Source: Euglena gracilis (lineage: Eukaryota). Taken from it: 64,000 nucleotides of DNA. Shown here in pieces: positions 176-63,999 of the stretch (position 1 is the stretch's first letter; every line of letters begins with the position of its first letter). The stretch covers positions 45,115,847 through 45,179,846 of the forward strand of contig CP154954.1 of assembly GCA_039621445.1 (NCBI GenBank), in the 5' to 3' direction. Position numbers and translations under genes: made by a program. The notes beneath the pieces were generated by a model. That model did no database searches, was not told the DNA's origin, and was given only the letters and a program-made list of their open reading frames with translations.

Positions 176-4685
<4,510 letters not shown>

Positions 4686-6071: not shown

Positions 6072-7127
6072 CAAGGCGTCGCTTAACCCGGAGGGCACCC
6101 CATCCCCGGACCCGGGTCCAGCCAGCCAGCAGCCTTTGTCCAGCCCACCCTCCTCCCCCCCCCATCGATGAGTTTGATTTATTTTCCTTGGGGCGGCTGG
6201 GAAGTGTTTTTTTTTTGCTTTTGGACGAGCAGAACATAGGCCAAATAAAGGGTCAAAAGTGGGTCAGAAAAGTGTTGACCTGGAAAATTTGGGGTCACAA
6301 AAAATATTTTTTCCTGCACAATCGCCATATTTTTTCAGGTATGTGTGTGGTTTGAATGTTGATGCCTTATTGGACCTTCAGTCTAGTCCAGCCCTGGGGT
6401 TCAGAGCAAAGTTTTTTCAGGACCTGGGGGGGTCTGGCACCCACCTGCCAACACAGCACAAGGGTGGGGGGGTCCCTTCCTCAGTCTAACGCAAAATCTG
6501 GCAGGGGGCGGACCAACCCACCCAACCAGCCACCTACCCCCCCCCAAGTCACCAATCTGAAGAAAAAAAATGTCTCTGGTTCACTAACGTGGGGTTTGAA
6601 GGGGAAATACATCAATTCGTGCGAAGTTTTGAATCTCCCCGACTGCCAAAAGTTGACAATTGTGTTAAAGTTTTGTCCATTCTGTTTGCAAGATATTACC
6701 CGACAAGGGCCTGTGCCGGCAAATTTAGCGCCGGAACAGCAGGCAAATTAGGCAGAACTCCAGAAAGACCTGGATATCGGAGGGGGGAGGGAGTTTGTTG
6801 ACAACGGAGATGCTTTCGGAAGTTTAAACTTCCACAAACATTGGCAATGCTTGAACTCCACCGGAATGGCGTGATTTGACTAAAACCGATCCACCAATTG
6901 AAATAATGTGTGCCCAAGGCTGGGGCATGGGTTGTTAAATACCCCCCCCCCCACGAGTGTCAGGTGTGGCCCAGTGGAGGGCCTCTGCCCGGAGCCACAC
7001 GTGGCGGCGATCAGCGTGCCGCGGCCCAGTCGGGGGGGGGGGGGGAGGTCAGCCAGCAGCTTTTTTTCCAGCCAGCCCAAATTTTCCCGCCTCTGACAGG
7101 GGGACGGGGTCGCTAAGCAACGCCCTG
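6072..7127. mobile_element. hAT-like non-autonomous element
   Basis: TIR CAAGGCGTCGCTTA ... TAAGCAACGCCCTG; flanks TTCCTGGA / TTCCTGGT (7/8); same ends as 44589-45490. Confidence 0.7.
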
Positions 7128-8193: not shown

Positions 8194-10532
8194 CAGACAT
8201 TCATTTAGTGTGGTACACCAAGGTTGTCATTTTGTGGTTCACTGTGGACACCACAAAAATTTTTGTGGTTCACCTGTGGACACCAAAAAATTTTTTGTGG
8301 TTCATTTGTGGACACCAAAAAAGTTTTTGTGGTTCACCTGTGGACACCAAAGTAATATTTGTGGTTCACATGTGGACACCAAAAAATTTCCCACCGCCTG
8401 CTGACATTTGCATCATTTTCTTTCTCATCAACAGCAATGAAGCAATCTTCTTTGAACATGTTTGACTCAGGCGGCGTAAGTCGGCCAACAATTCTGGTGC
8501 CCTAAAAACAGAAGAGGAAGCGGAAAACCACTTCCAAAAAAGGGTCATATTTTTCGATTTTTTTTTGAAGAGGTTCTGATTTTGGCCAATTCCGGTGGAC
8601 GTTTGGCTCACAGTCAGGCAAGGACAGCCACCGGATCCCACCGGATCCCACCGGATCCCACCGGATCCCACCGGATCCCACCGGTGTTTTTTTGACCATT
8701 TGACTAGTGGGTTCCCACCGGATCCCACCGGATCCCACCGGGTCCCACCGGATCCCACCGGATCCCACCGGAGATTTTTTTTCCATGCACAGATTTTTCT
8801 TCTGGATTAATGGTCCGCGTGAGAAGAATCATGTCCGAATGTGCAATTTTCACAAATTTCCACCAGTACCCCATCTGTAGTTGACTTGCATTCTTTTTTT
8901 TGTCTGGTTTCCTGCAAATTAGCAGCTTTTTGCCTTTTTGGCCATTTTTTTTTGGCCATTTTGGACCACTTTTGGCTACTTTTGACCACCGTGGGCTGCA
9001 TTTTGGCATTTTAGACCATTTTTGGCTGCTTCTGGCTATTTTTGCACATTTGTGTCCATTTTAGGCCACTTCTGACTGCTTTTTATCCACTTTTTGCCCC
9101 CTTTTGGCCATTCTTGGCCATTTTGTGCACAGATTCGGTGACCATTGGTACAGTTTTGATAAGATCTGCCGGCAAAACCAGGTGATTTGGGCCAAAAACA
9201 CCGAAAATGACCAAATTCACCCAAAATGCTGTTTTATTGCAATTTTATAATTGATGAATTCCCGATCCCCCCCCCCAAGGCAACCCACCGGAACCCCACC
9301 GGATCCCACCGGATCCCACCGGATCCCACTGGATCCCACCGGCATTCCGCTTCAAAAGCAGGAGATGTGCAACGAAAACTGAACGCAATGAATTATACAG
9401 AATGTAATGTAAAAAATATGCATAATGGTTGCACGCCAAAAAGGAAGCGTAAAACCGCTTTGAAAGAATCCATAAAAAAAATGGTATGAATTGAAATCAT
9501 CAACAATGATCACCAAACGATATTCCAATCCCAATAACAACGAAGAACGTTAACATTTATGAAATTTATGAAGATAACAGAAACTGGACAAACTGAACAG
9601 AAATTGAATGTCATTATCCAAAGTGCATAATGCAAATACGTCAAACCACGTGGAGACAATTGCACGAGTTACGAAAGGTATAACAGGCGAAACGATACAG
9701 ACCTTCTGTTCACTTCCCCGTGCTTCACTTGGAAGGACATTTCGACATGACATTGGCGTAAAACCTGCAAAAAAACAGAGCAAATATGAAGCGGTTATCC
9801 GCTTCCTCAGGCTGACATAATACCTTTTAATTATCTCATATTGCCAAACTGCAAAAACCAGAATGAGGCTGCCACTTACCCTTCTGAATGAAAAACAATA
9901 CTGAATGTGGTCTTTCATTGAATGGTCAAGTTGAAGATCTGGCACCACAGCAATGAAGTGGCTTTCCGGCTCCTACCTCAAAACAAAGCACATGGCATTG
10001 CCGATTTTTCAGGCACTTTTTCAGGCACTGAGGCACTCAACTGACATCCCACAATGCCCCAGAACGCTCCCAATGTCCACAGCCATGCCAAAGCCCCACG
10101 ATAATGTCGCGTGTTTCTGCTTCCATGAAGCGGAATTCCGCTTCATCGACGCCAGTATTTAACTTTTTGATGGTATCCTTGTTGGGTAAGTTGTCTATGG
10201 AGCATGTCTGCTTGAGAACTCGATAGCAATCTGTCCAATTCCAACTGCCACGCTTCGTGGATTGAGCCGGGGCCAAGGCTCAGAATGTGGCTGAGGTGTC
10301 TAAAGATCAATCCGCTTTTAGGTGTATTTTTTTCGATCCTCAATCAATTTCTGTGGACCACAAATTTTTTTTGTGGACACCACAAAAATTTTTGTGGTTC
10401 ACCTGTGGACACCAAAATTTTTTTTGTGGTTCACCTGTGGACACCAAAAAAAAATTTGTGGTTCACCTGTGGACACCAGAAAAAAATTTGTGGTTCACAC
10501 GTCTTTTGTGAACCACACTAAATGAATGTCTG
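8194..10532. mobile_element. hAT-like non-autonomous element with subterminal tandem repeats
   Basis: Perfect 21-bp TIR CAGACATTCATTTAGTGTGGT / ACCACACTAAATGAATGTCTG; perfect TSD TTTACAAC (8186-93, 10533-40); ~30-bp repeats TTTTGTGGTTCACCTGTGGACACCAAAA at both ends; internal (CCGGATCCCA)n arrays at ~8630-8770 and ~9288-9342. Confidence 0.9.
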
Positions 10533-12783: not shown

Positions 12784-15700
12784 GTCCACATGAGCGTTTT
12801 CACCGACAGAGCGGGCTTCCCCCGGGGGCCCGCCCCTCCCCTGGCGAGACGCGTTTCCTCGGGGAGGCCAGTGTGCAGTGAGGCTGGCCCAGGGAGCCGT
12901 GCCCCGCGATTTGCCCACGCCCGGCCTCGGGGTTGTCCCTCTCGTGTGAGGAATGGCGTGGAAGGCACACTCTGGGGGCGGAAGTTCGGGTTGGAGGGAG
13001 GGGGGGTTGCTGGCGGATTGTGTTGGGGGTGGGCCGCAACCCAACCAAGCAACGTTTTTGCAAGCACTTTTTTCCAGCCGGTTGGTGCTGCCAGCCGCGG
13101 CCATGTACCCTGCCGGGAAGTTTCCCCCACTCTTCCACTCTTCATTGTTAAAACAGAGCCTGCTGGCCACTTCCAAGTGTATTTTTGAATGTTACCAGTC
13201 GGCCATACAATTTGATGCGGCAACTTCCGGGGGATGGGGGGGGATTGTAGATTGGGGGCAGCAGGAGGACAAGCCTGTTTGCTTGCCTACCCAGCCAGGA
13301 AGGATGTTCATGGCAATCCTTTTTTGGCCCTGTGCCAACTGTCCCGAGAGGATTTGACCCCTCCCCCGTCCAGTCACAGTGTGGCCTTGCACAGAGCATG
13401 TTCCTTCGGACATTTTCTTTTTAGTAAAAGCGCTCCAGAAGCTTCGTGATAGTTTGGCACAGCAGTTTTTGAACTTCCTTTTTCTCTCTCACATTTGACC
13501 CATGTGGCCCAACAGGACCAATGTCCATGGGATGACAAAAGTGCCACCTGGCAAAGTTGGCACAGGATGGAGTGCTGCAGATTAACCCTCCCCCAGATAA
13601 TGACCCCCCCCAAATAATAATAATCCCAATAATCCCCCCAGATATTGCACTGAAAATGTGGATAAAAATCATAATTTCTGACAGTGAATTCTGAAGAAAA
13701 TCGATTTTTCAGGATCATCTCCAAAAATGCTTAATTTTGAGAAAGTACAGTAAATGACCCTAAGAGGGGTTTTTTGGTTCTATTTTGGGTCTTATGGGAC
13801 TTCAAAAAATTTCGAAAATTTCAGGTGTTATCACCCTCCATGTAATACCCCCCCCTCAGTCCAGGATTTCAGGCAAAAAAAATAATAATAAATACTAAAT
13901 ACCCCAGGGGGGATCCATTCGGGAGGGGAGTTTACCCCAGAGCACCCCAAAGCTGATCTATTGCACTTTGTGTTAAGGGGATGGAGGCCGTTTCGGTCAT
14001 GCTGGCGGGGAGCGAAGCCGGCGTGCCCGCGCCGCAAGACCACCCGGGAGGGCCGACCCACTCCGGTGGCCACGGGGCCACACCCCCGTCGGCCCGGCAC
14101 TGCTGCGCGACGGCGTCCGCCCCGGCCTGCGCCGCGCCGCGCACCAGAGCCAGACCCATGTCCATTTGTGGCCTCTTCGCCCTCCCCCCCCCACAACAGC
14201 CCCTGCATGGTCAAGGGCAGAGACCTGACCCGAGGGGCAGGAGGGGTGGGGCAGTTCTGTTTCCAAGTGGTCAAACATGTCCAAAGGTGGCCAAAAGTTG
14301 CGGAAAAAAATGTGCAAAAATAGATTAAAAAAATGATAAAAATGGATCAAAAGCAGCCAAAAGTGGCCCTTGGTTTGCCATTTGGTGGCATTTTTGCCTG
14401 GGGCGGTGTAACAAAGCGCAAAACAAGGCGGAGCAGAAGCGAACAATATCAACAGCGCCGCCTCCCTGGTCGGCCTGACGTCCCCGGGGGACATCCCTTG
14501 GTTTGCCGGAAGTCGGCCACCGCATTGCCGTGCCCCGCGGGTTGGCGGGGCCCCCTCCCCCGGCCAACCCCACTCCCCCCCCCCCAGACGACTGGCGCCG
14601 GGCGGCCCTGCACTGTTCCGCCTCCCCCCCCCCTCGCCACAGCGCCGGACCAACGCCTTGGCCCTCCCCCCCCAGTGAAACACCCCGCCTGCCCCTCCTG
14701 TGAGACAGCGGGGCCCTGAGAGAGGGATGGGGAGACGGAGGCCGGGCGGCGGCGGGGGCCCCGTGGCGCCCTGGCACCCGGGATGCCCGGCCCCCGCCCC
14801 CGCCCGTGCCGGGACGGCCAGGGCGCAAGAAGCTCCGGCAGGGGGTAAACGCAAACCAGGCTTTTGCTTAAGGGATTGCAGTACCCCCCGGGGGGGGGGG
14901 GGGGGCTGGACTGCAGCTAGTCCAAATTGGCTAGTGGGTTTTCTAGCAGACCCCCCCCGGGGGGGGGGTCTGCTAGCAGGGCTAGCTAGTGGAAAATTTT
15001 TCACGCCGAAAAAAATTTTGGGACCCCCAAAAATGGCCCAAAATGCCCGTTTTTGGCCATTTTTGGGAATTTTTGGAACAAAATCAGCCAAAACCCTGTT
15101 AAAAACCTCATTTTTCCTCCGGCGCTGTGCGCCGGAGGAAAAATTTTTTCCCCGTCCGGGGGACCCCCGGACCCCCCCCCCCCCCCCCGGGGGGAGGGGG
15201 TCTAGCTAGTCCACTTTTTCCAGTGTCTAGCCGATTGGCTAGCCAGTACCCCCCCCCCGGGGTCCTTAAGCAAAAGCCTGACGCAAACGCGTTTTTGGTG
15301 GTTTTTGCCTTTTTCCTTTTTTTTGTGCTTTTTTTGTTTTTTTTCAGTTTCTGATTTTGGCAAAAGTTGCTCGCCGTGTTTTCTCCCAGGCCTCGCGGGG
15401 ACAGTGTTGGGATTCCAGGCACGCATGGAGGCCGACGTAGGCGCCGAGAGGAGCTCCGCCCTGTGGCGGGTTTGCCAACGACTGCGGTCGGATCGCTGGC
15501 TTTTGCCGCCCCTCCCCCTGCCCTCACCCCCCTGTGTATATGAGCAGTCTGCGCAGACAGTGTGGGCTGCCGGGACAACGGCGACTCAGTGTGTGTCTAC
15601 TTGGTGCTGGCAGTGTAGCCCAGGCCACCAACCGTTGAAAAAAGAAAATATCTGAAATCACTGCAAATCAAATGCATTTCTTATAATTGTTTCTTGATTC

Positions 15701-21464: not shown

Positions 21465-25503
<4,039 letters not shown>

Positions 25504-26547: not shown

Positions 26548-29500
26548 GACGTGTTCTGGGAAATGGCCCAGGAGATGATGAAGAGCGAGAAGCAGGCCGT
26601 CGCCCTGTCCCCGGTGCTGGAGGCGCGGGTCCGCTTCGCCCAGCCCCCTGTGCACTGCGCCGTGTGTGGCGGTGCCGGGTGGACGGGTCGTGTGGGACCA
26701 GAAATGGCGTCAGTCTTGGATTTGCTCTGCCTCTGGAGTCAGGGCTTGCCCCTGTGAGCACATAGGCAGAAACCCAACCAACTTGTATTGGGAAGGCAAT
26801 CTTTGTGCCATAAGGAAATTAAATGCATTAGAATTTCTCAAAGCCTGATGCAGTGCAGTGTACATTTTCAATCACAACTCAGCTATGTGGAGCACCGCAC
26901 AAAAATGGTGTACATTTTTACAACAAGATTTTGTCCAACAACTTCGTAACAGACTGCCCCATTTTGTTGTCGAAGCACCACAAATGGTTCTCGGTGCTCA
27001 GATAGGGGGAGAGACAGGGACAACCCTGCCTGGTTGGAAGTGGGGCAGAAGCTCTGGTGGATGGGCAGATGAAGCCCGGGTGGGGACAGCGGTCCTGCCC
27101 ATCATTCACGGTCCACTGGCCATCCCATTCTGTGTCTTACCAACCCTTGACATCCGGTGGATTGAGTCCACAGACTCTGCAGAGTCAGTAAACCCCCCCC
27201 CAAATAACCTGGCGGGGCCCTTGCTCCTGGCAATGGCCAAATAACTTGGCGGGGGAGAGGCAAAAAAGGATGGTTCCAGTAACTTGGCACCCCCTTTTTG
27301 GGCGAAATTCTTTTGCGCCGCTGAAAAAGGGGGCCCAAATAACCTGGCGGGGGCTGGGCCAAAAGTTGGTCCAATAACCTGGCACCCCGCTAGGTTTTGG
27401 GGGGGGGGGTTAGTGATCTATGGGCCTATCGACAACCTCGAACCCCCAGCCTGCGTTCCTCAGCTTTGAGTTGCTGACGGGTGGGTCCTAATTTGGGTGC
27501 TCCCCGCCCTCTGCTCGGGGGGCTGGCGGGCGACCTGGACATGTACGGGCCACGGCACCCGAAGGTGGTCACCGGGCTGCTGTGCGTGGCACGGGACCTG
27601 CAGCGCCGCGGGGAGCTGCGCGACGCCGCGCTGATGAGGGGTTTGCTCAAGCCGGAGGGGACCCCCCAAGGGGGAGGGTCCAGCCAGCCAGCATTTTTTT
27701 TTCCAGCCAGCACATCCCAGCCGGGCTTTGGACCCCCCCCCCCCAGGGATCCGCTGATATAAAGTTCAGGCTGGTGAAGCTGGGCTGGAGCAAAAGAATT
27801 CTTCAGCCAAAAAAAATGGCCAAAATGGCATGTTTGCGTGGTTTTTGGGGATTTCACCTCCTAGCCTGGTATTTGGCTGAAAAATGCCAACCCAGCTGGA
27901 TTTGGGCTTATTTTGGGGGGGTACCCGCCAGGCCCAGCCAGCACGTTTTTCCCAGCCGGTCTGCGGGACCCCCCCCCCCGGGGTCTTTCATAAAACCTCT
28001 GGCGCTGATGTTCCAGCGGGCTGTTGAGGCCCAGAGCGCGGTGATCGGTGCTCACCACGCAGACGTCGGGGTGACGTACGGGCAGCTGGCGGGGGTGTAC
28101 GAGGGGCTGGGCCCAGGCTGGCGGCTGCTGATGACCCCCCCCCCCAGCCCGAGGTTTGACATGAGGAGGGCGAGGTGTCCACCCCCCCACCCCCAACGAG
28201 ACCAATTACCAGCCAACCAGACCTGGACCCGACCCCCCAGGAGAGGTTAAAGGGGGGCTGCCCTGGCCGACCGCGGCAAATCATGACTCCGGAACATGCA
28301 CAAAGGCTGCACTGGTACCTCCCCCCCCCCTTATCCAACGACCGGGCTTGTCTAACGACCACCCCCCCCCCGGTCAGAGACGATCTTTTTGTATACGATG
28401 TTGGTTTGGCCAAAGTTGCTAAAAGTTGGCTAAGAACAGTCAAAAATAGCCCAAAATGGCCTAAAATGGCCAAAGGATGGCCAAAAGTGCCCCAAAAAGT
28501 TGCCAAAAAATAGCAAAAATAAGGCAAAAATGGCCAAAAGTGGCCAACCGTAGTCAAGAAATAGCATAAATGGCCAAAAACAGCCCAAAAATGGCCATAT
28601 ACCCCCATCTATGGTAAATTTTCCTCCGACTTGGGGTCCACCCCGCTTGTCTAACGACCACCCCCCCCCCCTGGTCGAAGACGAACATTAGTGGTCGTTG
28701 GACAAGGGGGGGGAGGTAATTCATAACACAAATGTATTGTCGTTTTGATGGCCTCACTTGCCAGCACCCCTGGGTTATGTTGCGTGCTATTGATTGGTCA
28801 ACAGCACCCAAGATAACCCAGGGAGTCTGATTGGTCAGAATAAAAACCATGGGGTGCAGAGGGGCCCCAAGTCAAGCTTGACCATTTCTACCATCAAAAT
28901 GGACAGAAACGTTTTTTTTTTGGGCCAAAATTTTCGCATCTTGGCAAAATTTTCTCAAAAAAATTTGCACATTGAAAAGTAATGAAACAACACCCGAACA
29001 AACGAACACACAAACCCAGCCCCGGGGATGGCCCGCCAGCCTGCGGCTGGGAGTGGGATCGCGCCCTGGCGATGTACGAGCGATCGCTGGAGCTGCAGCT
29101 GGCGGTTTGGGGCCCAATGGAGCTGGAGATGGGCCCAGGGGTTTTTTTTTTAGTCGTAGACCCCCCCCCCCGGGGGGAGGGTGGGTGGGTCCAGCCGAGG
29201 CCCCAGGGTCCCCCCCAGGGGGGAATTGCTCAGTTTTGGAAACTTGAGGGGTGACTGACTGGTTTTTTTTGAATGATTGGCTGGTTTTCAGCCACAAACC
29301 CCCTGGCTTAGGCGGCGCAAATTGCCCAATTTTTTTTCCAATTTCTGTGCGTTTGAAGTGCGCGGGTTTCCGCTTACGATACCCCACTGTTTTGTGCTCA
29401 AAATTTTGAGAGGATGACACCAGTACGAAAATTTGGGTCGTTTAGGGTCCATTTTGGGCATTTTGACAAAGTGGCGATTTTGAAAATTTATGGTTGTTTT

Positions 29501-32500
29501 GGGGGGGGTTTGGAAAACAACCCCCCTGGAACGCCTTAAAATTTTGAAAAACAGAAAAAGGTGGGGAAACACCTGGCCTCTGGAGCCCCGGTTGTCTGGC
29601 GATGTTGCTGGACCCCCCCTCTGGAGGGAGGGGGACACGGTGTTGCAGGTGAAGAAGAGGCCACCGCTTAAGCAACCCGCGCATTTTTGAACCTCTCAAG
29701 AGTCCCGAGGTCCAGTGACGGGGGAGGTGAACACACAACACTGCCCAAAAGATGCTATAATTTCTGGAAGAGATGTGTTAGGCGGTAAACCGCACAAAAC
29801 TTGTTTTTGTGATGAAGAGATGCTACCCTAACGGAGGGGACTGGAACGGGAATAAAGGTAAAAATGAGGTTAGGCAGTTTACCGCGTAAAGAAGTGATGA
29901 TTCCTCAGGCGGAAACCCGCGCAGAAGTTTTTGAGAAAGAGAACAGTTCGTGTTTGTGGATGGCGTATGGGAGCGGGAAGTGGGAACGCGCTGAAACCTC
30001 TGGAAGTTGGTCATTACGTGAAGTTGTTAATGAACAAGTTTGGGGGAGGGGGAGGGATTTTGAGACGTTATTAGTGGGCGGTTATCCGCCTACTCCGCTT
30101 TTGCTCTGCGCGGGTTTCCGCGCAGGTATGGATTGGGCCGAAACACGCGTGGAGCTTGTTGCTGTCGCAATGGGTTGTGTTTGTGATGTTTCGGTGTCCC
30201 GAAGCGTGTCGGTGGTCGGTGTCGATGGAACAATGTTTGAAAGTCAGGCGGGACAGGTTGAAAGGGAGCGGTGGCTGCTGCGCCGGGACAGCAAGCACCC
30301 GAGCAGGCGGAAACCCGCCTGGCATTTGAGCAGGAGGTGTACACCCTCCTCTGCAATGAGGAGGTGGACGTGTTCCCCCTGGCCAGGTGGTGAAGGGGTG
30401 GCTGCAGGGACAGCAGTGGAACGCGTGTGTCAGTTGCCAGGCCGGGTGAGCTGCGGTAGAGAAGATATTTTGTTACTGTCCCGAAAAACAGCGAAATACC
30501 TGAGGTTGATTTCTCAGGAGGAACAAAAGCACCCAAGCTCCCAGGGCCCTCCATTTGGAACCCAACGGTGTTTGTGGTCCAAAATCAGGGTTTGGGGAAG
30601 GCTGACGAAGAATTGATTCAAGATATGGACGGAGAAACGCCTGTTTCAGCAGCTGGTGGCAGCAATCGAAAATTTTCGGGGGGTTTTGGGCAGGAGTCCT
30701 CCAAGTTCTGAAAAATTCAAGGCCTTTTCAATTGTTTTTTGAAAGAGTTTTACAGCATTTTTCCTTTAAAAAGCTGCAATTTTTGCTTAAATTCAGACAA
30801 AATGCCCAAACCACCTCTTTTTTTCTGGCTCTTCTTCCTTCGGGGTCGGCAACATGCCTCCAGAGGAGGCAACGGTGGTCTCCACTGTAAGAAGCCGTGT
30901 GGGAGGGGGATAAACCAGAAGGTTGTCATTCTCAACCATCGCCGGGTCGATGTTTGACCCGATGCATTTGGCTTCCATCCATGTAATCAGTCTCAGCACA
31001 AGCGTGTCCGGTCTTTTTGGAGATCACCCCTGCTCTGAGTGCCCAAGTTTAAGGGCTGCCCGTCTCTCCTTGTTTGGTCAAACCCTGCTGGTGCAATCTC
31101 CTCTCCCTGGTTTCCATAAACCTCCATCCCTCAAACTCACCACAACACGCCAGACACCATTCAGTTGCAAACTGTCTGGCAACCTGGCAACAAAGTCTGT
31201 CGTCCGTGTCCTTTGCAAAGATTCACCCCTGCAACTGGTGTCACAAGTAGGGTTGCAAAACTTTGCAAACAAGCCAGCAGAGTTCATTTCCAAGGAGGTT
31301 TCCATCTTCCACCCCCCCCCATCGTCCACAAACCCTTTTGCTTTTTCTGCCCACCCTTAACGCGGCCAGGCGGTTTCCCGCCTGACTTCTCTGACCTCAC
31401 AGCTGGTATGCCCCCCCATGCCTCCTACCCGTCATCAACTGTTTGTGTTATTGTCCGCGGTATTCCGCGTACCATTCTTTGTTTTCACTTTTAGGCGGTA
31501 ATCCGCGTACAAGTTTATTCTACGCGGATAACCGCCTAAACGTTTAACTCCGTTGTCTGTCACCTCTTGTTACGTGGTTATCCGCGTACGCTTGCAAATA
31601 TTTATTTGTTTCTCAAAGAGTGTTACTAACATAAACCATGAAGACACAGCCCCACCTCACAACCATTCAAAGTCAGTGTTTTCCAGCCATTTCAAACATT
31701 TCTAATACACCCCCAACTCACACAATTCACACACAATCGTAAATCGTTTAAGCGGAATACCGCGCAAAACCACTTTCGGAAAATTTTCGCCCAAAGCTGC
31801 AACACACCCCTCTGAACCTAGAATTTTGTGCCCTTTTAGGGGGGTTTTAAAACAGCCAAAAACGTCAAAAAACGCAAAAATCGGTTGGGCAATTCGCGCC
31901 GCCTAAGCCTGGAGCTGGAATATTCTTTTAAAAAAAAAATCTATTCATTTTGGCCCGGGGGACCAGAATGACCGACTGAACCCGCGGGAGGGGGGTTTGG
32001 AAGGGACTGGTTTGCAAGATGTGAATGACTGGTTGGGGGAAAGACCTCTCCCACCGTGTGGGACAGATCCCAAACGCCACCGCCAAACCCCTCCGCCCGT
32101 CCTGTGGGGTTCGGCTCAGTGCGTTTCCGTTTCCTGCTGGGCTTCGTGAAACGATTTCACTGTGAAGCGGCTTGTGCTGTGAATTTCCTGCCTGGGCACT
32201 GAACTCCGGGAAACGTGTGCCCTGAGAGGGAATGGAATTGGTCATTTCTGGCCGCCCACCTTGGGTGGAGTTCGGAGCATGCCATTGCCTACTAGCCCCT
32301 GCATGGGGGACAGGACAAGCGACCGGTTATGTAATACACGGGGTAGACAGAAATTACATTACCCAACAATTGAGGGAAAAAAATTTGGTCATGCGAAAGA
32401 GATCGACAAATGGCAAAGAACAGTGCTAGCAAGCTGTCGAATGCTGAAATTTACCAAAAAAAATTCTCATCTCCTCATTGAGTGAACGGAAGAGATTCAG

Positions 32501-35500
32501 GTTGTTTTCCTGAAATGAGCCAACAATGCTGTTCGGCGCCAAAGGCGCCAAAAGGTGCTATTTTTAGCATTTTCGCGATTTTGGCCATTTTGGGGAAAGT
32601 AAGTGGGTACCGGGACCCCCCCCCGGGGGGGACCCCAGGGGGTGGGTGGGTGGAGGGGATCCCCCTCCCCCCCAGCCTTAAAAAAAACCCCTGGATGGGC
32701 CGCATGTGCCACCGTATGGCGACATTGTACCAGAAGCAGGGCAACCAGGTCCGCGCCCTGGAGCTGTATGCCAAGTCCCGGGCGGTGAAGGAGGCTGTAC
32801 TGGGACCGGGCCAGCCGCTGGCTTGCGCGCCACGGAGCCTGCAAAGGTGACACAACCCCCCCCCCCCAATAACAAACCCCCCGAACCCCGATTTCGAGTG
32901 TCCGAATAATAAACCGGGGGGGGGGTTATTTGGGGGGTTTATGCGGTGGTGTGCGTGCACACACATGCGGCATCGGGCACATGTGCACACAAGCACACGG
33001 GCATGTGCGCACATGCCAATTGCGAACGTCTCGTGTCGGGCATGAGGACAAAGGCGAAGAGCCTAAGCAAAGAAGGTGTATCATCATCATGATTATAGTT
33101 GTGAATGATACCCAGCGTTTATACCTGTTTGCTTTTCAACCCAGACGTGACAACCAAGAAACTCCCCCAGTCCTGTCCCCAATCTGTGGGCCACACCCTC
33201 CAGTTTACAGTCCCCCACCACCTCACTGTCCCGAGTAGTATCCGAGCTACTCCACCCCTCTCCTTCCCTCCCCACCGGCCTGAGTCCAGGGAGGGGGGCT
33301 CAAGCTCGAACCTCCTCGGACATTTTTAAGCTCCCCCCCCCTCGAAAGAACCCTCCTTGGACGACCTGGAACGATATTCTAAGAGGTTCAGCACCCTCCT
33401 CGAACGACCTCGAACGACATTATGTGACACCAGGGAGTTTGTTATTTTGGGTTACACCAAGCAGTTGCATACAAAGGGTGCAAAAGGGAGTTGCAGACAC
33501 AGGGCAATAAACCCCCCAAATTAAAACAAAATAAGAACCCCCTGGGCCGATCGAGCAGAAATCCATTAATAAGACACCCCCCTCCAACGGTGCAAAGCGC
33601 TGGAGACGGTGAAAATTTTCCCTAAAAAATTACCAAAAACCCCAATTTCAGACACAAAATGATGAAATTTAAAAGTTTTTGGGATTTTGGAGTTCAGAAA
33701 GAAAACATGGATAATTTCAAATTGACCAGTTTACACATCGTGCGAAGCGCCAAAGGAAAAATTTAGTGTCGCTTTGGTAACCAGAAAATTATGGTTTTTT
33801 CCCCTGGCCCGGGTCGGTCAAAGAGTAAGAGACCCCCAAAAATAAGACCCCCCCCTGGAGGTTTCCCGCAGCAGCGAACCCCAAAAAATAATAATTAGAC
33901 CCAGGTCTTATTTGGGGGGGTTACCTCGAACAACGTTGCAGGAGGGTCTCGAACCTCCTCGAACGACACTTGAGGCGGGTCCCGACCCTCCTCGCAGGTC
34001 GTTGGGGCTCGTCCGAGGAGGGGGGGGGGCCTCCGCCCCCGGCCCCTCCCCCCACCACACCCCGTCCCCCGGCCGGCGGCTGGGCCCAGGGACCCGGTGG
34101 TGGGGGCCATCTCGTTCGTGATGGCGCAGCTGTTCCAGGCGGAGGGGCAGTACCCGCAGGCCCTCGAGGCGTACAACCGCGTCCTGGCCATCCAGTCCGC
34201 CCCGCCGGGCCCCGTCTGCCCCTGGCGCGCCGTGGCATGGACCTCCCGAGGGTTGGGGGGGGGGAGGTTGGGGGTTGGGTTCAGGGGGGTGGCGTGAGGT
34301 GGGGGCAGGCCGTTGCGTCCGGTATTTTCGAGGAAGGTCGCACTCCCCCAGGGGTAGACCCACCCACGGGAACCACACACCAACCCCACAAGGTGAGTGT
34401 ATGTCCCCACAGCGCTGGAATTACAGCAGAGTTACTCACCCGGCCCGGGGGAGCAACACAAGAGTACTGGTGTAAGGGGTCCCTGGCCACTCGCCACACA
34501 GCAATTTGGGCCAGAAGCGAAGTTAGCGCCGGCCATAAACAGACAAGAAGCCTTAGTGCAACCAAGGGGGGTGCTAATGGGCGGGCACTTTCAACTCCGA
34601 GTTGGGGTGTTGGGGTGGGTAGTGCTATGGCACACCCCCTGGCGCCGATGGCCCAGAAGTGTCCACAATGGACCGGCGGAATTTTTACTGGACCCCAGGA
34701 GGAGGAGGAGGAGGAGGAGGAGGAGGGTCTGCTGGTAGCCCCAGCTTGTGGAAAAGGCTTTCCAGTGCCATACACAAAGCTGCAGGATCTTTTTTGACGC
34801 CCAAAACCTGCCAACTTCCCTTTTTTTTGGCATTTTGGGATTTTTTTGGGGAACAAAGCCGGCCAAAGTAAACCCTCGAACCGTTTCACGCCCCATCGCC
34901 CCAGGTTTTTCTCCAGTCTGGACCCCCCCCCCCCAAGGCGACGGGAAATCCTGGGGGGCTCAGCTCTCTCAGCTCTGCCCTGCCCAGTTCATTGGCCACG
35001 GTGCCAGGGCGACACCTCCGCATGGCCGAAGTGTACAGCGCCATGGGCAGCCACACCGGGCAGTGGCCCGCCCACACGCTGCGTCCGTGGCACTGTGGGG
35101 AAGGGGTGTGTGCTTGGGGGGGGTGCAGTTTGGTGTGTATTTCAATCTCGGGAAGGGTTATTTGTTTCTTCGGTTTATTGTTTTCTGAACGTGCGAACGT
35201 GCATTCTGAAAGTGAACGAACTTGCACGTTTTTTTTACCTTTTCAGAATTTCCCCCACCTCCCACCCAGGGGCCGAACGTACCTACATCAGCATCCTCCC
35301 CAAAAAAACTGGTGCTGGTGGCTCCCTCAGCCATTCTGGCACGCGAGGGGGGAGAGAGGCGCCACAGGAGGAGGCTGCGTAGGAGGAGCACCCCCACCCC
35401 CCACCCCCACCCCCAAGCGGCGGGCCGGTGGGGTCGACGCCATCGACATGTACCGCAAGGTGATCCGCATGCAGGTGGAGGAGTGGGGCGCCAACTCCCT

Positions 35501-37143
35501 CGTGGTCGGTGAGGCCAGGGCGTCGGCCGCGAGGCCCAGGCACGTCCCCCCCCCCCGCCCCTGGCCATGCCCCACCCCTGCCCACTCAAGGCCAGGGAAA
35601 GAAAGAAAAGACAAACAGCAGTACGTAGTTACGATGAATGAATGCATGCATTCATTCAAGCCATGTGCGGGGCTAGGCACGCATCTGGCCCTGACGGCCT
35701 GCTCCGGGTGATAAAGGGTCTCCGCAGGGGGGCACTGGCATTTTGTTGTGCTTTTTTTGTGTTTTGCATGTTGGCAAAGGTTGTGGTTTTGGGATTTTTT
35801 TTCGTTTGTGTGTGTGCATGTGTGTGTGTGTTTCCCCGCAATTTCCCAATTCTTTGGTGGAATTTTTTTCGACCTGGAAAAATCCACATTTTGGACCTTT
35901 CGAAGTCCTGTCCAACAGAAAAGTGTACATCCCGGGAGATCTCCTGTAGGAACGCAATTTGGGAACGCAACCCAAATTTTCCAGTTTTGTGTTGCGTTTT
36001 CGAAGGTCCATTTTGCATCCCCCCCCCATCTGATTTAGGTTTCTGTCCCCGCCCATTGCTTCCTTGTCATTTTCAGGACGTTGGAACTGACTCCCCAAAT
36101 GGTCAGAGATGGCTGAGGCCCGAAACGGATTTAAACGGGCCGTATCGGGGGCCAGAGTGGCACGACGGCCAAACCACGGGGACCCCCGGGAAATGGTCGG
36201 GCCGCGAACGCGAGCGCCCCCCCCCCCCCCGTCCCCGGCCACCCGCCCCCCGTCCCCCGGCCCCGGCCCCGCCCCCAACCCCCGGCCCCGCCGCCCTGGG
36301 GGCGACGTACGCCCGGATGGCGCAGGCGTACACGCTGAGCGAGGACACGGAGTCCGCCCTGGCGGCGTGCAGCACCGCGCTGGACATCCGCCTGCTGTCC
36401 CTCGGCGAGCGGCACGACGAGGTGGTGGGGACGTACGAGCAGATGGGGAAGCCCAGGGGGCCCCGGGGCCCGCCAGGGGTTGGTTGCGGTGCCCCGCCGC
36501 CTGTCTGGGGGTGGGGGTGCTGGGTTGTGTGGTAACCCATGGCACTCGCGGCGCGCGTGACGTGTGTGACTGAGGGCCGCCACGAAGGGGAGGAGGGTTC
36601 AATTGTGTGCCAGGCTGTGGCTGGCGGTGGTCCGTTCAGGAGATGGCTTGGGGGCAAAGGGCTGAGGGCGTAGTAGGAGCCGCCCTGCCTGCGTTGTGGA
36701 AGACCCACGGGGACCCCCAGATGGCCATGAAGGCGTTTGAGAAGGCGATCCAGATCATGACCCGTGCCCAGGCCTTCCCCTCCACTGCCCCCATCCCATT
36801 TTTGGCCATTTTGGGAATTTTTGGAACAACATCAGCCAAAACCTATTAAAAACCTCATTTCCAACTCGGCACGCAGCGCTGGAGAAAATATTTTTTTTTC
36901 TAGTTGAGGGGACCCTCGGATCCCCCCCCCGGGGGGGGGGGGGTCTGGCTGGTCCATTTTTTCCAGCGCCCAGCCGATTGGCTAGCCAGTACCCCCCCCG
37001 GGGGGTCCTTAAGCAAAGCCTGCTCCCTCCCTCGACCCCCCCCCACGCCCCACCACACGCATGCACACAGCATTGTCGGCACCGCATGTTATTTTGTTAA
37101 TTTTGCCATCTTCCCCACTCAAACAAAACGGCCCATTTTTGCC

Positions 37144-41240: not shown

Positions 41241-41622
41241 CAGGGTTTGATATAAGGAGGGCGTACATGGTTTAGGTGGGGGCACACCCCCCCCTCCTGG
41301 CCCGCAAGGGGGGGGTCCGGACCCCTGCCAGGGGGGTCCGGACCGACCCTCGGGGGGTACCCGGGACCCCCCCCAAAAAGGGTCAATTTTTTCCTCCGGC
41401 GCTTCGCGCCGAATTTTTTTTGCATTTTGGGCACATTTTTGCCCAAAAAGTGCCCAAAATGGCACTTTGGGTCGTTTGGGGGGTCAAAAATTTTCGGTCA
41501 CCCAGACCGCACGCGCAGCTGTTTAGGTGGGGGGGGGGTGTCCCCCCCACCCCCCTCCTGGCCCGCGGGGGGGGGGGGGGGGGGCCGGACCACCCCCCCA
41601 CCTGTCCTTACATCGAACCCTG
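41241..41622. mobile_element. hAT-like MITE
   Basis: TIR CAGGGTTTGATATAAGGA / TCCTTACATCGAACCCTG; perfect TSD CTTTTGCC (41233-40, 41623-30). Confidence 0.92.
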
Positions 41623-43628: not shown

Positions 43629-44425
43629 CAGGCATTTGCTTACCCCCCCCCTATGTTCAACGACCCCCCTATGTCCAATGACCCCCCCCCCCCCCCGGTC
43701 AGAGGACACCTTTTCGGAGGTTTGACCAAATTTTTGGTCCCGGCGTGAAGCGCCGGGACGAAAAAATTTGCCCAAAAATTGGCCAAAAAATTTGTTCAAA
43801 ATGCCATTTTTTGACACTTTTTGGACAAAAAAAAATTGTCAAAATTGCCCAAAATTTTCGGCGCGTAGCGCCGGAAGGGAAAATTTGGGCATTTTTGGGT
43901 GGGTAGGGACCCGGGTACCCACCAACTTCCTTTTGACCCCATGTCCAACGACCACCCCCCCCCCCCGGTCAGAGGACAGAGGTTACCGGTCATTGGACAT
44001 AGGGGGGGGGTAAGGGTTTGCAGTACCCCCTGGGGCAGCTAGTCCAAATTTGGCTAGTGGGATTTCTAGCAGACCCCCCCGGGGGGGGGGCGGGGTCTGC
44101 TAGCAGGGCTAGCTAGTGGGAAAAAATTTTCCAGTGACCGGCGCGAAGCGCCGAAAATTTTTTTGGGACCCCCAAAAATGGCCAAAAATGCCCGTTTTTG
44201 GCCATTTTTGGGAATTTTTGGAACAAAATCAGCCAAAAACCTATTAAAAACCTCATTTTTCCTCCGGCGCACAGCGCCGGGGGAAAAAAAAATTTCCAGT
44301 CCAGGGGACCCCCGAACCCCCCCCCCCCCCGGGGGGGAGGGGGGTTCTAGCTAGCCCATTTTTTCCAGTGTCTAGCCGATTGGCTGGCCAGTACCCCCCC
44401 CCCGGGGTCCTTAAGCAAATGCCTG
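43629..44425. mobile_element. hAT-like MITE (14857 family) interrupted in its left TIR by a TA-duplicating MITE (43641-44012)
   Basis: CAGGCATTTGCT-TA[insert]TA-AGGGTTTGCAG ... CCTTAAGCAAATGCCTG; flanks ATCGCAAC / ATCACAAC (7/8). The insert has TIR TACCCCCCCCCTATGTTCAACGACC / GGTCATTGGACATAGGGGGGGGGTA. Confidence 0.88.
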
Positions 44426-44588: not shown

Positions 44589-45490
44589 CAGGACGTCGCT
44601 TGAGCACCCCATCCCCAGGAAGGGGGGGGTCCAGCCAGCAGCCTTTTTCTAGCCCCGGACTCCCCTCCATCGACCATCGACGAGTTTTTTTTTTTATTTT
44701 GCCCCCTGCCCAAAGGGTGGCTGGAGGCTTCCCCCCCCCCTTGCCCACCACCCCTCAACAACGACCACCCCCTGGTTGGGGGGTGCACATAAGGGGGTGC
44801 ATACAACCACTGGTCTGCAAGGGTGTGCGTACAACATCTGGTCGAGGGGGTCGTGCGACTGGGGGTTGGGCCCCCAGTCGTACGACCCCCCCCCCCCGGG
44901 GTTGCAGGTTGGGGGCATGTACGACCCCCCCCCCCAGCTGGAGATTGTAGGAACCCAGCCGGTGGGCAAAGGGGGGGGGGGGTACCAGATTTTTTGTTTT
45001 CGGTTTCCAAATTTTGGTCCAAAATTGGGCAAAAAAATGGGTCGGATTCGGGCTGCCAGGGCAGTTCAGGGTCAAGAATTTGAATTTTTGGGGGTCATGA
45101 TACCTACCCCCCCCCGGAAACTGTCACCTGACAGGTTGGCTAGTACAGGGGACCCTAACAACTTCGTATCATGACAGGTTGGCCGGTACTGGGGACCCGG
45201 ACAGTTTCCCGGGCGGGACCCTGACAGGTTCTCGGGCATGACAGTTTCCCGGGGGGGGGGGGGGGTAGGTAATGGCAAAATTGGCAGTTTTGGGGGCATT
45301 TTTGCAGTTTCGATTTGTTTGGCGCGTGCCTGGTTCGCCCCCGGGTCCAGCCCAGTTTCAACCGGGGCTACAGGGGGGATCAGCCAGCAGCCTCGCAGTC
45401 AGCCAGCCAGCCCGCCCGCCCAAATTCCCAGCCAGCCCAAATTTTCCAGCCTCTGAGCTGGACCCCCTGGGGTCACTGAGCGACGCCCTG
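44589..45490. mobile_element. hAT-like element with nested TA-flanked MITE (45101-45271)
   Basis: TIR CAGGACGTCGCT / AGCGACGCCCTG; flanks CCTTCAAT / CCTCCAGT (6/8). Confidence 0.65.
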
Positions 45491-48199
45491 CCTCCAGTTT
45501 GACGTCCAAAGAAACACTGTCATTCTTACACCCCATCCTTGAAATTATCCCACCAGGTAGGTATTGCCTTGGCTCGGACCTGATGATTCTTCATGATGTC
45601 TCCTGGGGTTGTGCTCGCAGGCGGCAACTCCCCCCGCTGGACATGGGCGATGGGGTGGGGGAGTCCTGCCTGGGGTAAGTAACGTTCTCTATCCAGCATT
45701 GTTGAGAGGTTTTTGGATTTCCACCTCCAAATTTCATTTCATTTCAGCAGCAAGATTTCAACCCAGCTGGATGTGGATTTTTTTACCCGCTTTCGGGTAC
45801 CAGCAGGCTGCTGGACCTGCCTCCCTCCCCCTGGACCCCACCCCTGGGGGGGGGGGGGGTCCAGCCAACGCCTTTTTTCCCAACCAGCACGTTTTTCCAG
45901 CAGTCCCACAGGACCCCCCAGGGGTTTTTAAGAAAACCACTGACATGGATGGGAATGGGAGTTTGGGCTGTTAGGGACACTTCTATGTTATGCTTTGGTT
46001 TGCCATTCTCAGGACTTGAATTAATTCGAGTGGGGATCCCGCCGTAAACCCGCCCTGAACAGAAGCCCTCGGGGCTTCTATTCAGACCGTTTGGTCGAAA
46101 ACCGAGGAGGGGGCTTCTATTCGGACCAATGGTCAAAATCCGAGGTGGGGATTCTATTCGGGGGGGGGGGGTTACCGCCCAAAGCGCCACCGCCTCAGAC
46201 GCTCATTGGGAAGCAGCAGCAGAAAAGGTTTGCGGCGTCCCCACGAGGAGAGTTCCATTTCCCTCGTGGCACATATGGGGTGTTCCCAACTCCTCCTGGC
46301 TGACCCCTGTGTACCTCTCTTTTGAGGGTCCACATCACCTATTCACCTGCTCTGGATTCTGTTGGCATCCTGCCTTATATGTTGAACACGGTTTGTTCTT
46401 TTGCGAACCCAAAAAAAAATACCATTGGCACGCATTGAGCTTCGCAATGCGCAATACGTCGCAAGAATTTTTGCACCCTCATCCCAGTGGGTAATTACAG
46501 GCAAGCACCTCGGCAAGCACCTGAGCGATGCTGGGCGATGTTGGGCGATGCTGGATTTTTGGAGACCAGAGGTGGGGTCCCATACTGGGCGATGGGCGAT
46601 GCTGGCATTTTTTGCATATTTTGAAGAATTGAAAAGGTTAGAACAAATAAGCAATCATTAACCACAATTCTCTTCTATCAAACCCATTGTTGCCATTTTG
46701 GAGTAAATGGCAACAATTTCTTTGTTGCCATTTCTTTTCTAATTTGTGGACCACCCCGCGATGATTTGGGCAAACATTGGGTATGGCATTTTTGGCCGTT
46801 TCATGCTTTGGTGGTTTTGGGTCGTCGGTCATTTTGGCCACGTTTCGGGGCTTTTTGTGGTCGTTTTGGGGCTTCTGTGGTCATTTTGGCCTGGATACTG
46901 GAAAGATGGAGCGGTGTCCCTTCGTGGTGCCTTGTTTCGCCGGGTTCAGCTGACTGGTAATTGCCCCTTCGACACCCAGAAGAAAGGACAGAAAATGCGT
47001 CAGAAGAGGTTTCAAGCAAATAATTAAATACGAAATCGATATACAGGAGGACGCGTGCCAGAAGAACATAAATGGACAATTCAATCATAAAAATTCCAAT
47101 TTTTTATTTCAATGAAACATGAAGATTCAAAGAAATTGGATTCATGCCGCCGGCGCGGAGGGGCAGCAATGGCCGCAGAAACTGTAAAAATTGACCGTGC
47201 GGACAAACCCTGACGAACCATTGCCGCCCCCCAAAATTCCCACAGAAAACTCCACCCAGTAACGGCTGGGCCCTTTGGCCTTGCGGCTCGAAAGCCAAGG
47301 CATTCAAAGTCAAAAAGGGACCATCGGACTCCCACGGCGAAGGAAGGGGAAGGAAGAGACGAGGAGGGCGAGGCACAAGAAGATGGCGGGGTCCTTCTTT
47401 CTTTTACAACTATTGTGTTCTGGTTTGTGGTGTGTGCGCGGGGGGGGGGGGGGGGGGCTCCTTACTGCGCCGTTGTTGCCGGGATCGGCGATGATAAGGC
47501 CTCCGCCGATACCTTGGAGAAGCTGAATCCCCCCACGGGGTCGCTTGGTGGGAAGCTCCCGTTCTGGCGGGGATTTCTGTCTCTTTCTGGTGATTTTCTG
47601 GGTGGGGCTTTTGTGTTGCTTGGCAGGGCTTCCCCTTTCTGGCTGGGACGTCTTTATGTGTCTGGTGTTTCTCTGGGTGGGGTGGAGGGGTTGGCTCACC
47701 ATCTTCTTGCGCTTCGCCCTTCTGGTCCCTTCCTCCCATTTCCTGGGAGTTCGAGGCGAGTCGCGAAGTCCGAGACCATTCAACCCCCCCACCTATAACC
47801 CCCCCCCCCACCTATAAACCCCCCCTCGGGCCGACCAACCAAACCGGGACCTGTAAACCCCCCCTGGGAAGAAAAATGACAGCCGCCGGGGACGATTTTT
47901 TTGGCCGCAGACCACCCAAAAACTGATTTTTTGGCAATATTTTGAGACCGACTATCTTCAAAACTGCCTTTTTTGTCCAAATTTGCCGAAAACTGCCAAT
48001 TTCGGGGGTTTTGGGGGTCATTTTGGGGGGTCGGTTTTTCACCAACAATTCCGCAACCTATAAACCTCCCTCGCACTTTTAACCCCCCCCCTTCGGCCGG
48101 CCAACCAAACCGGATCCTGTAAACCCCGGGGGGTTTATAAGTGGGGGGGGGGGGGTTACTGTGCATCCCTCCTCTCTGGGCCATAATCATTTTTTACTT

Positions 48200-63632: not shown

Positions 63633-63999
63633 TGGACTTTTTGGTGGAATAGATGGAATTCAATGAGCGCACCGCCATTCGGGCCTCATTAAATTCCCCG
63701 TCCGAGGTCTCATCTCCCTCCCTGCCCGAAGCCGGGGTGTCCTCCTCCAAACAAGACATCTTGAAACTGACCTTTTGCCGGTTGGAGGAGTAACCACGGT
63801 CATCGCGGCGCTTACCGCGATTTCCGTAGCCGGGCCGGGGGGAACGAGATCTGGGACATTTGGATGCGTGGTGATCTTTGGAACCGCAAAGTGAGCAACG
63901 GGCTTTGTGGCGGGATTCCGCATAACGGGGGGAACGGTATTCCGTTCGACCGTCAAACCGTCGTGGTGAACGGGTTTCCCGTCGACCATGACCGGTGTA
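63598..63999 (-). CDS. gag: Gag C-terminus with CCHC zinc knuckle
   Basis: Open frame not in the ORF track: YTGHGRRETRSPRR...ARCSLCGSKDHHASKCPRSRSPR...AAGSDLE*. CX2CX4HX4C at 63856-63897; TAG at 63598-63600. Confidence 0.85.
   Translation of the reverse strand, partial: YTGHGRRETRSPRRFDGRTEYRSPRYAESRHKARCSLCGSKDHHASKCPRSRSPRPGYGNRGKRRDDRGYSSNRQKVSFKMSCLEEDTPASGREGDETSDGEFNEARMAVRSLNSIYSTKKSIAGYAAGSDLE

Follow-up and report, generated by a model that had tools for sequence, protein, structure and literature searches.

How might a coding exon of Euglena gracilis carry a 366-bp mobile element and still contribute an intact reading frame to the message, and what kind of intron does such an insertion become? 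The question is raised by a 64,000-nt stretch of E. gracilis DNA (GenBank assembly GCA_039621445.1, contig CP154954.1, positions 45,115,847 to 45,179,846 of the forward strand; hereafter the window, with all positions counted from its first letter), in which a gene on the + strand, built of 42-residue TPR repeats, is interrupted within one of its exons by an element at 27636-28001. It is quite probable that the interruption is a transposon-born nonconventional (Euglena-type) intron, derived from a hAT-like element and removed from the RNA together with one copy of the duplication made on insertion. The intron belongs to a known class for which an origin from miniature transposons with inverted repeats (MITEs) has already been hypothesised in print, and the mechanism as such is not new.

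The insertion and its flanking duplication

The TPR reading frame runs as ...RDAALM up to position 27636 and restarts as ALMFQRA... at 28002; the 366 bp between the two have no coding sense. As the sequence-only reading of this DNA had proposed, the interruption is bounded by a perfect target-site duplication of 8 bp, GCGCTGAT, with its left copy at 27628-27635 and its right copy at 28002-28009 (repeat family D14). Taken as a direct repeat, the duplication reaches 9 bp, GCGCTGATG (27628-27636 and 28002-28010, spacing 374), because the odd first base of the element, a G, is the same as base 28010 just past the right copy. The left terminal inverted repeat, GAGGGGTTT (27636-27644), starts with this G, whereas its relatives in the window start with C; the right one, AAACCTCTG (27993-28001), has CAGAGGTTT as its reverse complement. 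The two nonamers pair at eight of nine positions, one of the pairs being G.U, with G facing G outermost, in agreement with the broken terminal pair described earlier. The element has no open reading frame of a known family and is listed as a non-autonomous element, a MITE.

A repeat of 8 or 9 nt is by itself unremarkable here, as four other such families (D13, D15-D17; three of 8 nt and one of 9 nt) occur in the same 651-nt region. The non-random feature is that this repeat abuts the inverted CAG/CTG ends exactly, not the repeat as such. The one sign that the insertion may be recent, as had been suggested, is its intact duplication.

Evidence for removal at the RNA level

Four public runs were aligned to positions 27000-34400: a DNA run (X1), two contig sets (X15 and X18) and one set of raw RNA-seq reads (X21). 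X15, X18 and X21 behave as RNA because they have zero depth in four bins (28729-28975, 31940-32186, 32187-32433 and 32928-33174) which the DNA run covers at the low depth of unique sequence, 92-548. In both contig sets the alignments break at the two repeat copies. The genome matches X15 record 9 (576 nt) and X18 record 17 (621 nt) over 27531-27636, after which each has 3 letters that depart from it. Downstream, three contigs of 123 nt each, X15 records 10 and 11 and X18 record 18, match over 28002-28106 and are preceded, on the upstream side, by 18 letters that differ from the genome. Together with the 9 shared letters of the repeat, the overlap between the two groups of contigs amounts to 3 + 18 + 9 = 30 nt, and the same pattern is seen in two runs that come from different studies. 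These contigs we take to be unitigs of k=31 graphs, in which case k-1 = 30 nt is the overlap to be expected between neighbours. The break points and the 30-nt overlap therefore indicate that a transcript in both runs lacks 374 nt exactly between the repeat copies; that the upstream contigs align through 27636, past the exon end at 27632, is due to the direct repeat. This is strong indirect evidence for the precise removal of 374 nt from the RNA at 27636-28001.

The deduced protein agrees with such a removal. When the five exons lying between 27532 and 34216 are joined by the intron-code coordinates, which for the intron in question means removal of 27633-28006 just as the sequence-only reading had it, the result is 528 nt without a stop codon, encoding four units of exactly 42 aa; the open frame with its exact units is therefore an internal check on every junction between those exons. 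The matches of the single exon translations to TPR families are weak (TPR_10, 8.7e-6; TPR_1, 4.8e-5; TPR_12, 9.3e-4) because each translation is short. The status of the interruption as an intron, claimed from the letters, is thus borne out by the breaks of the RNA-type contigs in two runs and by a spliced frame that keeps the 42-aa periodicity.

A second insertion in the same gene behaves alike. The element at 29136-32693 (3,558 bp) has the ends CAGGGGTTT and AAACCCCTG, to which GAGGGGTTT and AAACCTCTG had rightly been likened, and is flanked by the duplication GATGGGCC at 29128-29135 and 32694-32701. In X18, the loose end behind 29135, GCATGTGCCAC, is the sequence of 32702-32712, and the one before 32694, ATGGAGCTGGA, is that of 29117-29127; since these loose ends match across 29136-32693, the second element and one copy of GATGGGCC must also be removed precisely, and here the junction is read directly. 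The two insertions differ in duplication, in element size and in position within the 42-aa unit, which upholds the earlier view that they are independent.

Related elements in the window

Whether the interruption derives from a mobile element depends on its relatives. A scan of the window took in every CAG...CTG pair at a spacing of 40-6000 bp in which 7 or more of the 9 end bases are complementary; among the 5,795 pairs found, exact direct repeats of 6, 7, 8, 9 and 10 bp abut the ends in 1, 0, 4, 0 and 0 cases, respectively. When all 64 trinucleotide/complement pairs are compared, CAG alone yields several complex 8-mers; the excess for GTG and GGG consists of microsatellite or homopolymer artefacts, and the remainder give at most 1-2 matches. 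The four exact 8-bp cases are the second element of the TPR gene (29136-32693) and the elements at 8194-10532, 14857-15280 and 41241-41622, the latter three in flanks which look non-coding; since the duplications occur there also, CAG...CTG elements look truly mobile.

Two of them are related MITEs: the one at 14857-15280 (424 bp) has a 15-bp perfect inverted repeat, CAGGCTTTTGCTTAA, and the 8-bp duplication ACGCAAAC, and the one at 41241-41622 (382 bp) has the end CAGGGTTTGATATAAGG..., the 8-bp duplication CTTTTGCC and AT-rich flanks. The ends of the element at 27636-28001 align with both, the consensus being CAGGSTTTKNYTNAAGG followed by a C-run or G-run, and differ at the left end in having G for C. 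The element at 8194-10532 (2,339 bp, non-autonomous) belongs to another family; its inverted repeat, CAGACATTCATTTAG, is perfect over 15 bp, and its duplication is TTTACAAC; short subterminal repeat arrays lie near both of its ends and are visible as repeated peptide strings in the open reading frames.

When the ends and the duplication were each permitted one mismatch, 19 matches were obtained, versus 8-14 in displaced-register controls. From this noisy relaxed scan come two candidate relatives, 43629-44425 (duplication 7/8, ATCGCAAC/ATCACAAC; inverted ends 12/12) and 6072-7127 (duplication 7/8, TTCCTGGA/TTCCTGGT; inverted ends 10/12), both of which coincide with partial BLAST matches to the element at 27636-28001. 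Within the window, its interior matched 45879-45942 (75%, 69 nt), 45696-45784 (70%, 91 nt), 44620-44648 (90%, 31 nt), 6081-6145 (76%, 66 nt) and 7035-7079 (80%, 45 nt). The likeness of the interior to repeats at 44.6 and 45.8 kb, noticed before, therefore holds for short stretches but does not extend to a full-length copy. The interior consists of high-copy repeat words, and this, together with the ends shared with 14857-15280 and 41241-41622 and the 8-bp duplications which those elements have of their own, speaks for the transposon status that had been assigned. Public metagenome contigs gave no match to the exact 27-nt string of the left end or to a degenerate pattern of the family ends, and Rfam gave no match on the window.

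The ends of hAT elements are summarised as YARNG, and an 8-bp target-site duplication together with CAG(R)G ends points to that superfamily, which has a weak target consensus of T at position 2 and A at position 7. The right end at 28001 (CAGAG) fits YARNG, as do the relatives (CAGGC, CAGGG, CAGAC), and the left end (GAGGG) departs from it in its first base; the target consensus is fully present in only one of the five duplications. Judged by ends and duplication length, the elements look hAT-like: with non-autonomous hAT elements and MITEs they share the 8-bp duplication, short inverted repeats, CAG(R)G at the right end as well as on all relatives, and a non-coding interior with subterminal repeats, and they differ in that no hAT transposase is found in the 28 open reading frames of the window that were searched and in that the left end at 27636 starts with G. 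An 8-bp duplication is also known from Merlin, a transposon documented in E. gracilis; as described in PMC8101967, Merlin has inverted repeats with a conserved terminal 5′-GG, whereas in the elements of the window (C/G)AG...CTG stands directly against the duplication and the terminal GG is missing, which on the strength of that description sets them apart.

Comparison with the nonconventional-intron code

According to PMC12501133 (2025), 71.8% of the introns of E. agilis are nonconventional, 84.4% of the introns of both kinds are "slidable" through junction repeats, and the nonconventional code is given as 5′-N3 C-D-G ... C-H′-G N5-6/purine (here and below a slash stands before the first exon letter); 38.8% of the annotated nonconventional introns are reported to lie outside the CDG/CH′G pattern. 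Knock-in experiments are described there in which each single-base change tested in CAG or CTG abolished splicing of the test intron. The review PMC11282704 places CAG at +4..+6 and CTG at -8..-6 as inverted repeats, mentions that repeats resembling target-site duplications are often present, and describes excision as full-length circular RNA. The MITE origin was proposed in 2014 (PMC3935182, according to which euglenids had at that time yielded no identified transposon) and is restated in PMC6221363, PMC11170887 and PMC12621601; PMC12501133 calls the origin unclear and suggests MITE-like elements.

By the N3/N5 rule, combined with the contig breaks, the intron at 27636-28001 becomes 27633-28006 (+ strand, 374 nt), reading GAT-GAG...CTG-GCGCT/G. 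With the nonconventional introns of E. gracilis and E. agilis, as PMC12501133, PMC11282704 and PMC3935182 present them, it shares the lack of GT-AG ends, slidable junction repeats, a position among many introns in one gene and the proposed MITE-like origin; at its 3′ side, CTG-GCGCT/G has the C-H′-G, the N5 spacer and the purine. It differs in its 5′ trinucleotide, GAG instead of CDG, and in weak terminal pairing. Five further RNA-supported introns of the gene have the N3/N5-6 geometry, four of them with CAG/CTG and one with CCT/AGG. Removal at the RNA level would presumably be the work of the same machinery as described for Euglena.

In the mechanism envisaged, a hAT-like, non-autonomous DNA transposon bounded by terminal inverted repeats would have inserted into the TPR coding exon and duplicated the 8 bp GCGCTGAT; in general terms, insertion of a CAG...CTG-ended element that duplicates 8 bp would give duplication-CAG...CTG-duplication. 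The pre-mRNA would then be cut 3 nt upstream of the first trinucleotide of the element and 5 nt downstream of the last one, CTG, so that the excised piece of 374 nt would consist of the element, 3 nt from the left copy of the duplication and 5 nt from the right copy. This amounts to the element and a single duplication copy (3 + 5 = 8), and the pre-insertion frame would therefore be restored without a scar. Both insertions in the gene (27636-28001 and 29136-32693) would be erased in this way, and the introns without a repeat in register (28111-29048, 32809-34087 and 26638-27531) may be older insertions in which drift of the unconstrained 3 + 5 intronic nt has done away with the match.

Points against and alternative explanations

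Several observations weigh against this account. On the side of the RNA, the assignment of X15 and X18 to RNA is a program's guess with no RNA record behind it; the letters of the 27636/28002 junction are not displayed, the joint being deduced from break points and unitig arithmetic; and no joint across 27636-28001 is among the listed joints of the raw RNA reads, of which 133 were aligned. On the side of the code, the 5′ end reads GAT-GAG in place of N3-C-D-G, and no CAG is available anywhere in the slidable range; position 27636 is G where code, experiments and relatives all have C. The terminal duplex is computed at -14.1 kcal/mol, a value reached by 136 of 500 random partners, while those of three neighbouring introns reach -23.9 to -33.8 kcal/mol and are matched by 0-1 of 500; the minimum-free-energy fold of the whole intron (z -2.0) pairs other segments and leaves the terminal nonamers unpaired. 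On the side of the transposon, a full-length copy of 27636-28001 elsewhere in the window was not found by BLAST, and no transposase domain was found in 28 open reading frames of the window, mostly taken from the longer, more complex ones, in which only weak TPR matches, one sub-threshold DUF4153 and retrotransposon domains were present. The G may be an assembly or strain difference (no variant row is listed for base 27636 in the DNA reads, the coverage of that base not being displayed), or the natural code may be looser than CDG/CH′G, in line with the 38.8% of annotated introns outside the pattern and with the CCT/AGG neighbour, which is spliced.

In an alternative reading, the copy in the window would be unspliced, a dead allele or paralog disrupted by the insertion, and the spliced RNA would come from a near-identical copy with an empty site. 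The G at 27636 breaks the CAG requirement of the experiments and the terminal duplex is no better than many random ones; further, the contigs are unable to tie the exon junction to a particular DNA copy, and expression involves more than a single allele or copy, as seen from the exon-2 variants of X15 (2 and 5 differences) and the exon-1 difference of X18. However, over 105 nt the exon-2 unitig of X18 shows no difference from the window, and no 27636>28002 joint of an empty site is among the X1 DNA joints listed. Of the annotated nonconventional introns of E. agilis, 38.8% are, according to PMC12501133, likewise outside CDG/CH′G, and the neighbouring intron with CCT/AGG is spliced, with 8 raw reads. 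An empty-site source is, in our view, unlikely.

A nonconventional intron could also have acquired its repeat by a route other than a transposase, that is, by repair-mediated insertion with microhomology, by some other gain route or by chance. The share of E. agilis introns with junction repeats, 84.4% over both kinds (PMC12501133), is such that not all of these can be 8-bp duplications; a link to DNA repair is raised in PMC6221363, and other families of 8-nt (three) and 9-nt (one) repeats lie in the same 651 nt. Nevertheless, the repeat abuts the inverted ends at exactly 8 bp, as it does in the four other CAG...CTG elements of the window, lengths of 7, 9 and 10 bp being unrepresented, and the same ends with an 8-bp duplication are found outside exons also, which makes an origin without transposase distinctly unlikely.

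A spliceosomal introner of the kind known from Micromonas, Aureococcus and dinoflagellates, where the transposon brings one splice site and the duplication supplies the other, follows the same logic of a DNA transposon and its duplication yielding a precisely removable intron (PMC11282704), but is very improbable: the 9-nt repeat allows 10 registers, none of which combines a 5′ GT/GC with a 3′ AG, AG being absent from the 3′ end in all of them, and a joint seen in the raw RNA reads of this gene has GG..CC ends. The dinoflagellate or green-alga introner was dropped for lack of a GT/GC-AG register. Hardly credible, too, is an assembly artefact that misplaced a repeat inside the exon, for although the interior is high-copy (the 7.4 kb aligned draw 23,033 X1 contigs, and mosaic joints between repeat modules are numerous), X1 record 1 crosses the right junction (27954-28106) without a difference, though X1 is possibly the source sample of the window, and RNA contigs of two runs break exactly at both repeat copies.

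Other transposon-derived introns

The transposon-born intron favoured here has counterparts elsewhere. According to PMC11282704, the MITE-derived non-canonical introns of Fritillaria borealis and the introners of Micromonas, Aureococcus, Polarella and Amoebophrya have in common with it that insertion of a transposon makes an intron whose excision restores the message; they differ in that the spliceosome, modified or not, is credited with removal, while at 27636-28001 the ruler would be 3 + 5 nt around CAG/CTG. An exonic insertion of a hAT-type element is reportedly lost from RNA in maize as well.

A Ds element (hAT) in a maize exon was reportedly found by Giroux et al. in 1994 to be spliced as a de novo intron; there, removal is reportedly spliceosomal and imprecise, which sets it apart from the Euglena case.

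The host gene and its other introns

The remaining parts of the TPR gene, all on the + strand, follow the geometry of the code. Upstream of the interrupted exon lies the nonconventional intron 26638-27531 (GCC-CAG...CTG-GCGGGC/G, with a 6-nt 3′ spacer and a slide of 2 nt), for which a loose-end consensus before 27531 is present in X15, X18 and 5 X21 reads and is located at 26614-26630. It is followed by the exon 27532-27632, ...RDAAL(M), supported by X15 record 9, X18 record 17 and its translation, and, behind the intron 27633-28006, by the exon 28007-28110, (M)FQRAVEAQ...VYEGLG, supported by X15 records 10 and 11 and X18 record 18 and matching Pfam TPR_12 (E 9.3e-4).

The nonconventional intron 28111-29048 has an 11-bp inverted repeat (GCC-CAGGCTGGCGG ... 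CCGCCAGCCTG-CGGCT/G; in code form, GCC-CAG...CTG-CGGCT/G) and no duplication in register; the alignment of X18 record 20 begins at 29049, and the terminal duplex, -33.8 kcal/mol, is equalled by none of 500 controls. A degenerate 10-bp tandem array of about 15 copies of CAAAAATGGC occupies 28441-28597 inside this intron, and its motif recurs in several MITEs. The next exon, 29049-29132 (Pfam TPR_7, E 0.046; RNA contigs and translation), ends at the intron of the second element, which by the rule is 29133-32698 (GCC-CAG...CTG-GATGG/G, with its own 8-bp duplication) and has a terminal duplex of -23.9 kcal/mol, equalled by 1 of 500 controls.

Beyond it, the exon 32699-32808 (X18 record 23; Pfam TPR_10, E 8.7e-6) borders on the nonconventional intron 32809-34087 (GGC-CAG...CTG-GGCCC/A), which is not slidable. 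Its joint, 32808>34088, with ends GG..CC, is read in one X18 contig and in 15 raw RNA reads of X21 with 12 start places, and its terminal duplex of -33.3 kcal/mol is again matched by none of 500 controls. The exon 34088-34217 (X15 record 16, X18 record 24; Pfam TPR_1, E 4.8e-5) is followed by the nonconventional intron 34218-35013 (GCC-CCT...AGG-GCGAC/A), where a complementary CCT/AGG pair takes the N3/N5 positions; the loose end behind 34217, found in X15, X18 and 8 X21 reads, is located at 35018-35038. CCT/AGG falls outside the published CDG/CH′G pattern, yet the 3-nt and 5-nt spacers and the exon purine are kept.

Exon variants cluster in the RNA runs at 28049-28076 and 32715-32799: in X15, exon 2 is represented by two unitigs, one with 2 differences and the other with 5, and several exon-4 changes are common to X18 and X21, so that more than one allele or close paralog appears to be expressed. 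Further TPR-like coding pieces at 3078-3356 and 35642-36532, with weak matches to TPR_12 and TPR_NPHP3, suggest that the window may hold one long or several TPR genes.

Other features of the window

On the - strand, 58502-63659 holds the pol region of a retrotransposon of the Ty3/gypsy type (chromovirus), with RVT_1 and RNase H in the open reading frame 59800-62001, the integrase zinc domain, rve, SH3 and a chromodomain in 58502-59842, and no Pfam match in 61464-63659 (732 aa). Also on the - strand, 52899-56636 is an uninterrupted open reading frame of 1,246 aa with normal amino-acid complexity, to which Pfam assigns no family at E<=0.001; such a length is unusual beside host exons of about 100 nt in the window, so that a mobile element may be its source. 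Long (TG/CA)n microsatellites at 23400-23720, 24300-24400 and 24780-24880 appear as CVCV/THTH strings in open reading frames.

Implications for the introns of Euglena

At one 64-kb locus, several predictions of the MITE hypothesis are seen together: the same CAG...CTG ends with perfect 8-bp duplications occur inside and outside exons, and the exonic copies leave the RNA at positions which delete exactly the element and one copy of the duplication, as the hypothesis predicts. The arithmetic of 3 + 5 = 8 makes the hypothesis testable genome-wide and points to a candidate superfamily with a transposase to seek. Neither the equality of 3 + 5 with the length of the duplication nor the link to hAT was found in the nonconventional-intron literature searched; it is possible that a peak at 8 nt, or introns of the GAG type, are already documented in the supplements of PMC12501133, which include a figure of sliding distances and Datasets S7 and S8.

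A wider proposal is offered tentatively, as rather less likely than not: the 3 + 5 splicing ruler might mirror the 8-bp duplication of one hAT-like CAG...CTG superfamily, in which event most nonconventional introns of Euglena, the majority of its introns, would be such insertions, and the machinery would have evolved, or have been recruited from the transposon's own recognition of its ends, specifically to erase them from RNA without a scar. Were the ruler indeed such a mirror, the copy at 27636-28001, GAG-ended, weakly paired and apparently still spliced, would show a tolerance for loss of the outermost pair. With its G for C it is a natural variant at a position found essential in the knock-in experiments described in PMC12501133. 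The value of the locus lies in unusually clean evidence for a MITE origin of these introns and in the pointer it gives to a link between 8-bp duplications and hAT-like elements.

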